Below, piece after piece: positions 10,822 through 22,977 of a stretch of 38,094 nucleotides of DNA. Both the position numbers and the translations under genes were made by a program. The notes beneath the pieces are model-generated. The model was not told the origin of the DNA, did not search any database, and saw nothing but the letters and a program-made list of their open reading frames with translations. Every line of letters starts with the position of its first letter. The stretch's first letter is position 1. The stretch comes from Patescibacteria group bacterium (GTDB lineage: Bacteria; Patescibacteriota; Minisyncoccia; Phycocordibacterales; UBA6065): positions 1 through 38,094 of the forward strand of contig JBBTTH010000021.1 in the NCBI GenBank assembly GCA_038064295.1. The letters run 5' to 3'.

Positions 10822-10869
10822 GAACAGTCCTCGGGTCGGATTTGTCAAGGACAGACCGTTGACAAATCC
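10822..10869. repeat. Copy 1 of a 48-nt conserved core containing a 10-bp hairpin. Copy 2 is at 34457-34504.
   Basis: The sequence gaacagtcctcgggtcggatttgtcaaggacagaccgttgacaaatcc matches 34457-34504 at 46 of 48 positions. The hairpin is ggatttgtca/tgacaaatcc, and both differences fall in its loop. Confidence 0.7.
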
Positions 10870-10896: not shown

Positions 10897-10932
10897 TTCT
10901 TTATTTTTTCTTTAGATTTTCTTTATCTCCGT
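10897..10932 (+). promoter_or_regulatory. 36-nt T-rich phased motif (ttctttat-N5-ctttag-N5-ctttatctccgt) ending 16 nt before the comEC ATG.
   Basis: It matches 13045-13080 at 34 of 36 positions, and that copy ends 16 nt before the ATG of the MBL-domain gene. The internal period is about 11 nt. Confidence 0.55.
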
Positions 10933-10948
10933 TGTGTAAGGTTGGGGG

Positions 10949-12400
10949 ATGAACAACAAAACATTCTATGGCCTGTTTCTTTCCTTTTTTGCGGGAGTTT
11001 TTACCGCCTCTTTTGCGCATATCGACGCTATTTTCGCTCTCGTCGGTCTTTTAATCGGTGCCTGCCTCCTCATCAGAGGGTTTAGATTTATTTTTTATTT
11101 TGCCTGTCTCATTTTCTTTTTTCTCGGGGCGTATAGACTGGAAATTTCAAAAAATTATATCCATCCACTGGATGATTACATCGGAAAAATCGTGTCTGTG
11201 AGAGGTTTTGTGAGCGCGGAGCCGGAAATGAAAGAAATAGCGCGCAGATTCCGTTTTAAACCGGACGGTTCCAAAGACCAGATAATCATTTCCGCCGCTC
11301 TATATCCGGAATATAAATATGGCGAAGCTCTGGAAATCAAAGGTATCCTGAAATTTCCTGAAAACTTTGAAAGTCATCCAGGCGGTCCAGAATTTGATTA
11401 TATCTCATATCTCTCAAAAGATGATGTGCGTTATGTCATAAATCGTTCATCCATAACAAAACTCGGAGAAAATCATGGAAACCTCGTAATTTCATTTCTC
11501 ATAAAAATAAAGAAAGCATTTATAGAAAACATAGAACGTTTCCAGCCGGAACCTCATTCGTCCCTGGTTGCCGGCATTCTCCTCGGAGAAAAGAGTTCAT
11601 TGTCAAAAGATTTGCAAGATAATTTTAGACGTTCCGGCCTGACTCATATTCTGGTCTTGTCGGGTTTTAATGTTTCCATCGTAGCTGTGAGCCTCATGAA
11701 TATATTTTCATTTCTGCCGCGCGCTATGGGCCAATCCCTCGGTGCTTTTTCCATAATTTTGTTTGCCTTGATGACGGGCGCGTCCGCTACAACCATACGC
11801 GCCAGCATCATGGCTCTGATTGTCATCATGTCCTCGCGGGCGGGGAGAAGTTACGACGTATCACGGGCTCTCATTATTGCCGGCCTACTCATGCTGGTCC
11901 AAAATCCGCGCATTTTGGTTTTTGACATAGGCTTCCAGTTGAGTTTTCTATCCACTTTGGCCTTGGTATATGTGTCGCCGATTTTTACAGAAAAATTATT
12001 ATTTATCACAGAAAAATTTCAAATACGGCAGATATTCTCGACGACCATATCAACTCAGGTATTTATTCTGCCTTTTTTGCTATACAAAATGGGCGAAATA
12101 TCTGTCGTATCACTCATCACAAACCTGCTCGTCTTGCCTGTCATTCCGTGGTCCATGTTTGGCGGCTTTATGACAGGTTTTTTCGGTTTTTTCGGTAGTT
12201 ACATTGCTTTACCCTTTGCTTGGGTGACGAATGTTTTACTGTCCTGGATGATATTTGTCGTTTCTTTTTTTGGAAAATTACCTTTTGCTTCCATAAAAAT
12301 GATTATCACTCTTCCCATGCTTTTTTTGGCATACATTTTTTTGACATTTTGGATCGTGCGGTTTCACAAGAAAAAGAGATTGGCAGAAAGCAAGGTTTAG
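10949..12400 (+). CDS. comEC: ComEC/Rec2 DNA internalisation channel: N-terminal OB-like region plus polytopic competence domain, with no MBL domain.
   Basis: The protein is multi-TM, with motifs LLGEKSSLSKDLQDNFRRSGLTHILVLSGFNVSIV and GASATTIRASIMA typical of the ComEC competence domain. Confidence 0.85.
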   Translation: MNNKTFYGLFLSFFAGVFTASFAHIDAIFALVGLLIGACLLIRGFRFIFYFACLIFFFLGAYRLEISKNYIHPLDDYIGKIVSVRGFVSAEPEMKEIARRFRFKPDGSKDQIIISAALYPEYKYGEALEIKGILKFPENFESHPGGPEFDYISYLSKDDVRYVINRSSITKLGENHGNLVISFLIKIKKAFIENIERFQPEPHSSLVAGILLGEKSSLSKDLQDNFRRSGLTHILVLSGFNVSIVAVSLMNIFSFLPRAMGQSLGAFSIILFALMTGASATTIRASIMALIVIMSSRAGRSYDVSRALIIAGLLMLVQNPRILVFDIGFQLSFLSTLALVYVSPIFTEKLLFITEKFQIRQIFSTTISTQVFILPFLLYKMGEISVVSLITNLLVLPVIPWSMFGGFMTGFFGFFGSYIALPFAWVTNVLLSWMIFVVSFFGKLPFASIKMIITLPMLFLAYIFLTFWIVRFHKKKRLAESKV

Positions 12401-12407
12401 AGGGGTT

Positions 12408-12989
12408 TTATTTCGCTTTTTTGAAATTGTCTTCTACCGTCTGCCAGTTGAGATTGGCGAAAAAGTCTTCAATGTAATTTTTCTTGCCAGATGGCTGATA
12501 ATCCGCAACAAAAGAATGTTCCCACATATCCAGAACGAGAATGGGCGAAACGTCCGGGAGATGTCCTAAATGTTGTTCATCAACCCAATATTGGATTAAT
12601 GTGTCTGTTCGTTTGTCATACCCGAGCATCGCCCAACCAATACCGCGCGTAGTGGCCAGATTTTTGAAAATTTCCAGAAAAGAACCAAAAGACCCGGTCC
12701 ACTCAACGATTTTTTCGTACAGAGGAGAATCTGGGGAGAGAAGTTTCGGCCCGCCTAGAAAATGTGAGAAATAATATTCGTGATTGCGCATCCCTCCGAA
12801 CTCAAATCCCTGCCTGCGACACGCTTCCCTGCGCGCGTATTCCGGGGTGTCCTGATTTTCCAAGATTTCCTGAATGATATTCAGATTTTTTACATATCCG
12901 GCATAGAGCTTCAAATGTTCCTCCATAGTTTTTGCCGAGATGCCTTTCAGAGCCGGAATATTGAACTTTTTTTCTTCAAATTTTTTCAT
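12408..12989 (-). CDS. Fe/Mn-type superoxide dismutase.
   Basis: Metal-ligand contexts are conserved: EEHLKLY (His), MRNHEYYF (His) and LDMWEHSFVADYQ (Asp/His). The GSGW-like GIGWAML motif is also present. Confidence 0.8.
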   Translation of the reverse strand: MKKFEEKKFNIPALKGISAKTMEEHLKLYAGYVKNLNIIQEILENQDTPEYARREACRRQGFEFGGMRNHEYYFSHFLGGPKLLSPDSPLYEKIVEWTGSFGSFLEIFKNLATTRGIGWAMLGYDKRTDTLIQYWVDEQHLGHLPDVSPILVLDMWEHSFVADYQPSGKKNYIEDFFANLNWQTVEDNFKKAK

Positions 12990-13044
12990 AGGGATTTTAA
13001 TTATAGTTTTAATTATTTATATCTGTCGTTTATTATACTCCTTT

Positions 13045-13080
13045 TTCTTTATATTTTCTTTATATTTTCTTTATCTCCGT
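13045..13080 (+). promoter_or_regulatory. Second copy of the 36-nt T-rich phased motif, ending 16 nt before the ATG of the MBL-domain gene.
   Basis: The sequence is ttctttatattttctttatattttctttatctccgt. It lies in the divergent SOD/MBL intergenic region. Confidence 0.55.
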
Positions 13081-13096
13081 CTGATAGTCTCCGGGC

Positions 13097-13942
13097 ATGA
13101 AATTCAGAAGAATAATATGCGCCGTTTTTTTCACACTCGCCACAATGAGTATTTTTGTTTTTACTCTGGAGCAAAATCACGGCCTACTTCAAATTTATTT
13201 TCTCGATATAGGTCAAGGGGACGCCACATATATTCGTACTCCAGGTGGACATGACATGCTCATAGATGGCGGGCCATCCAGAATTATTTTGCAAAAACTG
13301 GCGGAAGTCATGCCATTCTACGACCGGTCTATTGATGTCGTCATAGAAACGCATCCAGACGCTGATCATATAGGCGGACTGCCGTCTGTGTTAGAACGTT
13401 ATAATGTCGGTTTGTTTCTGGAGCCGGGTATAGAGTCAAAAAACGCCATAGACGATGAGATTCGGAGAATTCGCGCGGAAAAAAACATTCCGCGCGAACT
13501 GGCGCGGCGGGGGATGATTATAAACTTCGGCGAAGGCGCGCATTTTGATGTTTTGTATCCGGACAGAGATGTTTACGGCCTGAAAGACACAAATGAAGCT
13601 TCCATCGTCGGACAGATGAAATACGGCCGAACGACGGTCATGCTCGCGGGCGACTCCCCGAAGAAAATAGAAAATCGTCTGATTGTGATGGACGGGGAGC
13701 GTCTCAAGAGCGATATTTTGAAAGCCGGACATCACGGCTCCCATACTTCCAGCGGTGAAAATTATGTGAAAACAGTCGCGCCGCGATATGCGGTTGTTTC
13801 CGCGGGCAGGAAAAATCGCTACGGGCATCCGCATGCCGATGTTTTGGAAATTTTTGAGAAACTTGGTGTAAAAATAGCGCGAACGGATAGAGAAGGCACG
13901 GTTGAATTTGTTTCAGACGGCAGATCAATTACAGAAAAATAA
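13097..13942 (+). CDS. Membrane-anchored metallo-beta-lactamase fold hydrolase, resembling the ComEC C-terminal nuclease domain.
   Basis: An N-terminal TM/signal anchor is followed by LDIGQGDA, HPDADHIGG, LAGDS and KAGHHGS, as in the ComEC MBL domain. Confidence 0.85.
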   Translation: MKFRRIICAVFFTLATMSIFVFTLEQNHGLLQIYFLDIGQGDATYIRTPGGHDMLIDGGPSRIILQKLAEVMPFYDRSIDVVIETHPDADHIGGLPSVLERYNVGLFLEPGIESKNAIDDEIRRIRAEKNIPRELARRGMIINFGEGAHFDVLYPDRDVYGLKDTNEASIVGQMKYGRTTVMLAGDSPKKIENRLIVMDGERLKSDILKAGHHGSHTSSGENYVKTVAPRYAVVSAGRKNRYGHPHADVLEIFEKLGVKIARTDREGTVEFVSDGRSITEK

Positions 13943-21834: not shown

Positions 21835-22977
21835 ATGTATATAGAACGATTTCCAAAAATTGAAGATAAAATAGAGGCTGGAAAAGTTCTCGTTATTTAT
21901 GGCGCGCGACAAGTCGGCAAGTCTTCTCTTGTGAAAAATTATATTGAAAAACTTAAACTGAATAGATCGAATGAAAAACAGGCTTTTTTTAATGGTGAGG
22001 ATGTGAATGTGCAGGCGATTTTCTCCTCAATGAATTTAAAAACTTTAAATGAAGCGGTGGGAGATGTTTCACTTGTTATAATAGACGAGGCGCAGGTCGT
22101 TAGAAATATTGGTATTTCGCTCAAATTGCTCGTGGATACGAAACCCGAGCTAAAAATAATAGTGACAGGCTCATCTTCTTTTGAGCTTTCCGGACAGATA
22201 GGGGAGCCCCTGGTCGGCAGGATGAATATCATTAATCTTTTTCCTCTATGGGAAAAGGAAGTTAAAGATGCCAGTCTCTATGATTATATAACAGACCTTG
22301 ATTTTGCCCTGCGGTTTGGTCGATACCCGGCGGTTTTCAAAGAGCCTGTCGTAGAAAAGAAAAAAGAAATTGTCACCAATATCGTAAACGGTTATTTACT
22401 CAGAGATATTTTGGCTTTTGACAGGCTGAAAAATTCAAAATTGATTCTGGATATACTCAAACTCTTGGCATATCAGATAGGCAATGAAGTTTCTATACAC
22501 GAAATAGCGACCAAACTTTCCATAAATAGAGCGTCTGTTAGTAAATATTTGGATTTATTGGAACAGAACTTCATTATTTTTCCTCTCCGTGCATGGAGCA
22601 AAAACATGAGAAATGAAATCCGCAAAAAAGAAAAATATTATTTTTATGATCTCGGCATCCGAAATTCTCTGATAGAAAATTTTGACGCTTTGGATGTTCG
22701 TAACGACATCGGTGCATTGTGGGAAAACTTTTTGATTACAGAGAGGTTGAAATATAACAAGTATACAGACCCCTATAAATCGGTCTATTTTTGGCGCAAA
22801 TTGTCAGGCGCCGAGGTAGACTTTGTGGAAGTATACGCTGACCATATTGATGGCTATGAATTCTCTTTTACGGAGAAAAAAGGTAATAAATCAAGGTTTT
22901 CTTGGGTAGAGAGCTATAAAAATGCCACATGGATGAATATTCACAGAGAGAATTATAGAGATTTCGTAGGTGGATAA
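21835..22977 (+). CDS. AAA+ superfamily ATPase of the AAA_14 + DUF4143 type (COG1373-like).
   Basis: It has Walker A YGARQVGKSSL and Walker B LVIIDEAQ. The C-terminal region matches the architecture typical of this orphan ATPase family. The gene is AT-rich. Confidence 0.8.
   Translation: MYIERFPKIEDKIEAGKVLVIYGARQVGKSSLVKNYIEKLKLNRSNEKQAFFNGEDVNVQAIFSSMNLKTLNEAVGDVSLVIIDEAQVVRNIGISLKLLVDTKPELKIIVTGSSSFELSGQIGEPLVGRMNIINLFPLWEKEVKDASLYDYITDLDFALRFGRYPAVFKEPVVEKKKEIVTNIVNGYLLRDILAFDRLKNSKLILDILKLLAYQIGNEVSIHEIATKLSINRASVSKYLDLLEQNFIIFPLRAWSKNMRNEIRKKEKYYFYDLGIRNSLIENFDALDVRNDIGALWENFLITERLKYNKYTDPYKSVYFWRKLSGAEVDFVEVYADHIDGYEFSFTEKKGNKSRFSWVESYKNATWMNIHRENYRDFVGG

Follow-up and report, generated by a model that had tools for sequence, protein, structure and literature searches.

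Competence genes that share a promoter element have been described from several bacterial groups, with the ComK boxes of Bacillus, the ComX/SigX cin-box of streptococci and the CRP-S sites, together with Sxy, of Haemophilus and E. coli (PMC1635313, PMC6560143). In Synechococcus elongatus competence genes were found to be controlled by RpaA (bioRxiv 10.1101/822627 / PMC7125226), and the sites of PmrA are known as hexamer direct repeats 5 nt apart, YTTAAK, as in TTTAAG-N5-TTTAAG (PMC10927774). In the Candidate Phyla Radiation (CPR), cultivated Saccharibacteria were shown to be naturally competent and com genes are conserved throughout the group (PMC10633639), while the fusion of ComEC with its metallo-beta-lactamase (MBL) domain is essentially absent (Meheust et al. 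2019, PMC6744442). Papers on a competence regulon of Patescibacteria or on its regulator were not found in the literature. In the present study a 36-nt repeat motif, here termed com box, was analyzed, which stands before both genes of a divided comEC, the N-terminal gene comEC-N and the stand-alone C-terminal gene comEC-C (MBL gene). Both lie in contig JBBTTH010000021.1 of assembly GCA_038064295.1, of which the stretch from position 1 to 38,094 (38,094 nt, the window) was examined. The organism is an ultra-small, uncultured groundwater CPR bacterium of a Paceibacteria genus, and its assembly (G000, with the window as contig C21) comprises 494 kb in 56 contigs, is 90% complete and has a G+C content of 47%.

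The overall best explanation, to which we assign a probability of about 0.7, is that the motif forms the upstream half of a dedicated promoter class defining a regulon of DNA uptake and recombination, that is, of competence. We are highly confident that the box is a promoter element which defines a regulon; that it is read by a conserved response regulator of the OmpR/PhoB family acting as activator is considered probable, with clearly less confidence.

The com box and the genes behind it

Direct reading and a pattern search of the window located two copies of the motif, both on the + strand, at 10897-10932 and 13045-13080, which are identical at 34 of 36 nt and differ at the 9th (T in copy 1, A in copy 2) and 19th position (G and T, respectively). 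The end of each copy is separated by 16 nt from an ATG (10949 and 13097). No match to the motif occurred in 100 dinucleotide-preserving shuffles of the window. These coordinates, identity and distances had already been given by a sequence-only reading of this DNA and were confirmed, and its estimate of an internal period of about 11 nt could be sharpened to exactly 11 nt in both copies, each of which is composed of three direct repeats of a unit of TTTCTTTAT plus 2 nt. In copy 1 the TCTTTA cores begin at 10898, 10909 and 10920, so that the box extends from about -53 to -18 relative to the ATG of comEC-N; it scores 64.8 bits with a position weight matrix (PWM), and its proximal repeat is invariant in an alignment of five species. 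It is followed by a -10-like hexamer, TAAGGT (10937-10942, + strand), 6 nt before the ATG, which would place a leaderless start at 10949. Copy 2, with cores at 13046, 13057 and 13068, scores 67.5 bits and is followed by an extended -10, TGATAGTCT (13082-13090, + strand), likewise 6 nt before the ATG at 13097. Directly upstream of copy 1, at 10822-10869, lies an element of about 48 nt containing GAGAACGGCACGTTC, which recurs at no fewer than five other intergenic places (C10:47, C28:12199, C36:10708, C37:2488 and about 34428 of the window).

A pattern search of the assembly followed by a PWM scan of the whole genome yielded exactly 10 strong sites with 47-68 bits. The next-best matches (30 bits or less) were register shifts of these same sites, and the control, reversed or complemented sequence, reached a top score of 25.7 bits; a relaxed two-repeat pattern recovered the same sites and one weaker site, with one match in the control. 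All 10 strong sites point at a gene, TAnnnT follows the proximal repeat after 10-11 nt in every one of them, with its first letter 11 nt behind the last TCTTTA, and in nine the ATG lies 23-27 nt after the last TCTTTA. The shared cis element thus precedes genes of uptake and processing, namely comEC-N and comEC-C (C21, the window), comM and yraN (two sites in C9), dprA with topA behind it (C56), and the recA operon, in which recA follows the gene of a 117-aa membrane Ig-like protein (C25). The four other sites stand before the gene of a 424-aa protein with LTD and PKD domains followed by that of a 1169-aa beta-helix/lipase-like protein, a large surface protein (C25), a 129-aa membrane protein with a 'sunset'/Ada-Zn-like domain (C33), a 150-aa PBECR-like nuclease toxin inserted between secY and adk (C34), and a module of a ribbon-helix-helix (RHH) antitoxin and a RelE/ParE-like toxin, where the leader is about 50 nt long (C19). 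The PWM scan detected no box before ribosomal and other highly expressed operons. Because comFC and a ComEA-type helix-hairpin-helix protein were searched for and not found in the assembly, every dedicated transformation gene recognised there sits behind a box. The sequence-only reading had suggested that further copies might mark a competence-like regulon, which the genome scan bears out, and had feared a generic T-rich leader upstream of unrelated genes, which is contradicted by the restriction of the box to one gene set.

Some of these sites deserve a remark of their own. The PBECR-like toxin gene (C34:2073-2525) carries its own box at the end of a ribosomal-protein cluster and is kept in a related species, G007, at 75% identity. 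Two of the box-preceded genes encode envelope proteins (C33:3432-3821, 129 aa, with the 'sunset'/Ada-Zn-like domain at its C-terminus; C25:4322-5596, with LTD and PKD), and these might substitute for the undetected ComEA. The weaker eleventh site is a two-repeat box on the minus strand (C25:14290-14316), preceded by two CCACAG-type DnaA-box-like repeats; it aims antisense toward the 3' flank of recA, has only tiny open reading frames downstream and may drive an antisense or small RNA.

The box is embedded in an unusual promoter landscape. Throughout G000, TAnnnT hexamers peak at -12 relative to start codons and Shine-Dalgarno-like words are almost absent; 57 promoters lacking the box gave the consensus TnTGnTATAAT-N6-ATG, in which -1 is a pyrimidine, the discriminator is A/T-rich and hardly any -35 signal is seen, a pattern which reads as the signature of leaderless transcripts from extended -10 promoters. 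Such promoters are apparently used almost throughout the genome, with examples in the window at 21835 and 8509. Box promoters have their -10 at the same position as the 57 others, but it is TAGGCT-like, the discriminator is G/C-rich and a -35-like hexamer is missing, the repeats lying at about -53 to -23. Their anatomy consists of two to four tandem 11-bp direct repeats with the genus-wide core yCTTyAT, the proximal one ending 10-11 bp upstream of the -10, which is weak, contains G/C and is often accompanied by TG at -15/-14; then come a G/C-rich discriminator of 6 nt and the ATG. These features are those to be expected of activator-dependent promoters. As the -10-like TAnnnT stands 6 nt before the ATG, box promoters look leaderless, and transcription would start at the A of the ATG.

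Among relatives, the triple repeat was found in the same-genus species G007, G019, G020 and G005, and singly in G010, G014 and G004, while the other genera sampled had none, save one match with two mismatches in a different family. In the first four species it precedes orthologues of comM, dprA, comEC-N, the MBL gene, the recA operon, the PBECR gene and the RHH module, whose proteins are 57-88% identical. When ten comEC-N and MBL promoters of five species were aligned, no variation was seen in the proximal repeat and the adjoining CT, in the TA and the T of the -10 hexamer or in the ATG, and the 30 columns upstream were unconserved. A strict geometric pattern (two repeats, 9-12 nt, TAnnnT, 6 nt, ATG) matched 27 times in 12 of 22 genus genomes, with 0 matches in controls. 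Additional targets in relatives are radC (G010, G005), a PIF1-type helicase (G009), MazF, PBECR1, ORF6N and an HTH_23 protein; toxin modules (RelE/ParE, MazF, PBECR1) recur as targets across species. Upstream of comM, most genus genomes possess two-repeat variants, yCTTyAT-N4-yCTTyATC, at the same distance to the -10. In three sister genera no box was detected before comM, which there directly follows a DksA/TraR-type gene, and in other families of the order reading revealed no shared motif upstream of the MBL gene, save for a possible look-alike in G047. The DksA/TraR-type C4 zinc-finger gene is found immediately upstream of comM throughout the family (C9:5209-5607 in G000; loci L064-L093), and in the sister genera it abuts comM with no promoter between. 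The retention of the box at comEC and MBL orthologues of sister species dispels a further doubt of the sequence-only reading, namely that the motif might not be conserved there, and, together with the fixed geometry, supports its proposal of a shared operator by which both ComEC halves would be co-regulated.

ComEC as two genes and the superoxide dismutase gene between them

The gene comEC-N (10949-12400, + strand) encodes 483 aa with a DUF4131/OB-like and a Competence channel domain (Pfam), and comEC-C (13097-13942, + strand) encodes 281 aa with one N-terminal membrane helix and a metallo-beta-lactamase nuclease domain (Pfam Lactamase_B). The ComEC/Rec2 model TIGR00361 (NCBIfam, 663 positions) is covered consecutively by the two products, positions 82-413 by the former and 423-663 by the latter. 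Full-length ComEC is the top solved-structure match of the MBL protein (30bt_A residues 514-789, E 2.6e-42); the alignment takes in the preceding membrane helix, and the motifs GQGDA, HPDADH, HHGS and GHP are common to both. With these metal-site motifs and the helix held in common with a solved ComEC, the MBL gene is therefore regarded as a genuine and apparently catalytically intact C-terminal part of ComEC. The sequence-only reading, in which the MBL domain had been described as a separate gene with its own N-terminal membrane anchor, was right in this respect, and its reservation that the gene might be unrelated to ComEC C-terminal domains is not sustained.

ComEC is thus encoded by two open reading frames instead of one fused polypeptide, and the 696 nt between them hold an antisense gene for an Fe/Mn superoxide dismutase (sod; 12408-12989, - strand, 193 aa; Pfam Sod_Fe_C and sub-threshold Sod_Fe_N; NCBIfam), which converges with comEC-N and diverges from the MBL gene. 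Relative to the sod start on the opposite strand, box copy 2 occupies the positions 56-91 nt upstream; it adjoins TATAAT-type hexamers facing sod, in agreement with the earlier remark that the second copy is also situated in the divergent sod promoter region. Following up the suggested comparison of comEC architecture, the split form was found across the order: a stand-alone MBL gene is present in 74 of 81 genomes (81 genera, 80 families of the order), with open frames of mostly 280-340 aa. For synteny, 29 MBL loci from other genomes and families of the order were fetched. The order comEC-N, antisense sod, MBL gene was observed in 11 of them, and in nine sod adjoins the MBL gene with comEC-N beyond the fetched stretch, so that sod is a neighbour of the MBL gene in 20 of 29 loci; five have comEC-N on the same stretch, one to four genes away and without sod, and four have neither comEC-N nor sod near the MBL gene. 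In some families both comEC halves are adjacent without sod. From the 74 of 81 genomes and the 20 of 29 loci it follows that the split is order-wide and ancestral, and that the association with sod is old and no recent insertion. The notion that comEC was recently split by the antisense sod gene has accordingly to be given up.

The order comEC-N, antisense Fe/Mn sod and MBL gene (10949-13942 of the window; loci L095-L123) is kept across many families, and this conserved neighbourhood of sod and MBL gene hints at a functional link between superoxide dismutase and the nuclease subunit, or at a very old frozen arrangement. To the known unfused state of ComEC in CPR bacteria it is added here that a membrane-anchored protein encoded nearby supplies the missing domain, and that in this genus both halves stand under the same box.

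A candidate reader of the box and competing explanations

In all five box-bearing relatives tested one conserved regulator of 229 aa is encoded, which combines a REC domain with a Trans_reg_C (winged helix) domain, and its gene is followed by that of a HisKA/HATPase_c kinase. The nearest solved relatives of the regulator are DrrD, PhoP, PrrA, MtrA, KdpE, BasR/PmrA and RpaA. A two-repeat box flanked by a GTTATCCNCA element is situated about 95 nt upstream of the regulator gene in 6 of 6 loci examined, and G005 and G010 possess a further copy, with three repeats, in the interval from the stop codon of the regulator to the kinase gene; these copies flanking the operon suggest that it is autoregulated in the relatives. 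Among 21 genus genomes, 17 have an orthologue of the regulator; seven genomes from sister genera have none. It is present in all 11 other genomes with strict box matches, and no strict match was obtained in the four other genus genomes from which it is missing (G012, G002, G018, G003). The box is hence probably the docking site of a two-component response regulator.

As a mechanism we propose that the kinase phosphorylates the response regulator, which would then occupy the repeats in head-to-tail fashion along one helical face and touch RNA polymerase where the -35 contact is normally made, as in the class II activation of Pho and PmrA boxes. Primary-sigma RNA polymerase would start at the A of the ATG and produce a leaderless mRNA, efficiently only with the activator on the repeats, while the box copies beside the regulator operon would permit autoregulation. 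In this way a signal sensed by the kinase would jointly switch on both ComEC halves, DprA, ComM, RecA, YraN, surface proteins that are candidates for DNA binding, and some of the toxin modules. We incline, if only slightly, to the wider view that an autoregulated two-component system of OmpR/PhoB type is the master switch of natural competence in the genus, reading the 11-bp box before leaderless genes (both ComEC halves, DprA, ComM, RecA, RadC, candidate surface DNA receptors and growth-arresting toxins).

Several observations weigh against this proposal. From the 90%-complete assembly of the organism itself the regulator and kinase genes are missing along with every gene neighbouring them, truB of one related contig included, as searched by tblastn and by tblastx of the sister loci, and neither a Trans_reg_C nor a LytTR domain was detected in it. 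In favour of it, contigs covering the regulator-kinase locus of G007 at about 86% identity exist in the four runs that hold the window, a value near the 76-84.5% by which orthologous loci of G000 and G007 agree, but they cannot be assigned to this organism; among database contigs, those with the closest regulators come from G007-like species or from more distant ones. The box beside the regulator gene has a non-canonical spacing to a -10, and G003, which is 98% complete, keeps a degenerate box-like comM promoter without a regulator match at E<=1e-30. The co-occurrence of box and regulator is statistically weak because it reflects largely one shared ancestry, and the counts are not phylogenetically independent. 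In the window, type IV pilus genes are not preceded by a box according to the PWM scan. No RNA run with the window sequence was listed, so that the start site, the inducibility and the sign of regulation, activation or repression, have been deduced from the DNA.

Among the alternatives, a promoter module independent of any factor is rated highest, although it is considered unlikely in either of its forms. The phased T-tracts (about -54/-51, -43/-40 and -32/-29, on one helical face) could act as a UP-like element or as curved DNA recruiting the alpha C-terminal domains of RNA polymerase, and regulation could proceed through an unstable open complex with its weak -10 and G/C-rich discriminator, for example by a DksA/TraR-like factor or by the level of initiating ATP. 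The G/C-rich discriminators and sub-optimal -10 elements which distinguish box promoters from the others would agree with such a module, as would the DksA/TraR-type zinc-finger gene directly upstream of comM throughout the family and the missing regulator in G000. However, certain positions other than A/T, the C of each repeat and a CTC behind the proximal one, do not vary between genes or species, a constraint which neither curvature nor a UP element needs; UP elements are A/T-rich, lie at -40 to -60 and belong to strong constitutive promoters, and the box is T-rich and phased, but reaches -23 and has invariant C positions. Confinement to one functional gene set, with ribosomal and highly expressed operons spared, and the co-occurrence with a particular regulator across genomes likewise speak against such a module. 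The opposite sign of regulation appears slightly less likely still than the module: the same response regulator, a LexA-like protein or another factor would block polymerase at otherwise constitutive extended -10 promoters. Most G000 promoters work without a recognisable -35, so box promoters could be active alone, recA is a member of the regulon, and a LexA is encoded (TIGR00498 above cut-off) whose promoter bears TTTCTAT repeats spaced by 11 nt. Yet more than 35 sites in 12 genomes keep the proximal repeat at an invariant 10-11 nt from the -10, which repression would not require and which is typical of stereospecific activation. The motif of the LexA promoter is unlike the box and confined to that one place in the genome. 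In G020 and G005, where the box is present, the LexA-like protein is only 28-31% identical to the LexA of G000, and none was found in G007.

The period of the box also recalls DnaA-ATP, which oligomerises on 9-mers 2 bp apart, that is, with an 11-bp period, as in oriC. Low-affinity DnaA sites arranged in series would couple the genes of competence and recombination to the state of replication. Such an array would further accord with the strong DnaA-box-like elements (TGTGGATAA/G and GTTATCCNCA) that abut two-repeat boxes in relatives, both at several loci and at that of the regulator, but is judged very improbable. The repeats match a DnaA box at only 4-6 of 9 positions and in an orientation opposite to the adjacent strong boxes; none of the 10 strong G000 sites has an abutting DnaA-box-like element, only the weak eleventh (C25:14316) does so, and at yraN two such elements lie about 200 nt upstream; and DnaA is universal, whereas the box is restricted to the genus. 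Least credible of all is a transcribed 5' leader element, be it a translational enhancer rich in U, an RNA bound by protein or a target for a riboregulator that the mRNAs have in common. A genome without Shine-Dalgarno sequences would require another ribosome-recruiting signal for leadered mRNAs, and the RHH-RelE site does have a leader of about 50 nt, but a -10 at the genome-wide leaderless distance stands between box and ATG and would leave the box outside the mRNA. RNA folds of the box regions were not significant against shuffles (z-scores 0.46 and 0.69), and Rfam gave no match. The translational enhancer, which the sequence-only reading had listed as an option, is consequently unlikely, as the box lies upstream of a -10 with leaderless geometry, 6 nt from the ATG.

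Other candidate readers were tried and rejected. A LytTR regulator of ComE type was not found in the assembly. Two genes for alternative sigma factors of ECF (extracytoplasmic function) type are present, with promoters of their own that lack the box, and the spacing from box to -10 fits no known sigma geometry. MraZ, which binds direct repeats, is encoded, but its own promoter carries GTGGG-type boxes and not the com box. LexA has a different promoter motif, unique in the genome, and its type does not track the box across species; a search for the SOS box (GAAC-N5-GTTC) recovered only the repeated element of about 48 nt. The lexA promoter itself (C36:15330-15414; L158, L159) is conserved and consists of a TGTGGATAACT element and two TTTCTAT repeats 11 nt apart, the second overlapping TATAAT; this type of LexA was seen elsewhere only in G013 and G019, most members of the genus having a LexA-like paralogue about 30% identical. 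DnaA-box-like elements abutting two-repeat boxes were recorded at loci L129, L130, L141, L146, L182-L184 and L188, and TGTGGATA[AG] occurs in 14 copies in G000, among them upstream of mraZ, lexA and yraN.

Significance and comparison with described systems

Bacteria of this kind are nucleotide-auxotrophic. If the two-component system is indeed the master switch, DNA uptake in these ultra-small organisms would be a programme under the control of a signal and not a constitutive scavenging route. With the shared box, the two ComEC polypeptides would be co-regulated though they are separate transcription units. The box yields a concrete list of regulon members, including unannotated membrane and surface proteins possibly replacing ComEA and ComFC, as well as a candidate sensor kinase and regulator which are approachable by experiment without cultivation, and it may serve as a marker for the same circuit in metagenomes.

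Each component is of a known kind: box promoters of OmpR/PhoB regulators, competence regulons and the unfused ComEC of the CPR. Compared with three-domain ComEC/Rec2 proteins such as 30bt, the two genes jointly cover positions 82-663 of TIGR00361, with the OB-like/DUF4131 part, the Competence channel, the final membrane helix and an MBL nuclease that retains the metal-site motifs all present, but distributed over two polypeptides with antisense sod between their genes. The regulons governed by ComK, cin-box and CRP-S resemble the present one in that a single cis element stands before comEC, dprA, comM, recA, radC and even toxin-antitoxin genes. They differ in the element, which there is an AT-box dyad, the -10 of an alternative sigma factor or a CRP dyad, and here a series of 11-bp direct repeats with a presumed winged-helix regulator; moreover, pilus genes are not part of the putatively inducible regulon here. 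With RpaA of Synechococcus elongatus the proposed reader shares its place as a response regulator of the OmpR family upstream of natural-competence genes, but RpaA is a global output regulator of the clock, whereas the box is confined to about ten operons and apparently dedicated.

The closest likeness in architecture is to the PmrA/BasR and Pho boxes, which are tandem direct repeats as well, with a core of 6-7 bp and an 11-bp period (here yCTTyAK-N5-yCTTyAT, in PmrA YTTAAK-N5-YTTAAK). There, as here, the box lies about 10 bp upstream of the -10 in place of a -35, copies stand beside the regulator-kinase operon, and an OmpR/PhoB regulator is encoded, in our case in the sister genomes. The differences concern the number of repeats, three to four instead of two, the leaderless extended -10 promoters, the absence of the regulator from the G000 assembly, with binding being putative, and the content of the regulon, which comprises DNA uptake and recombination and not phosphate or envelope functions.

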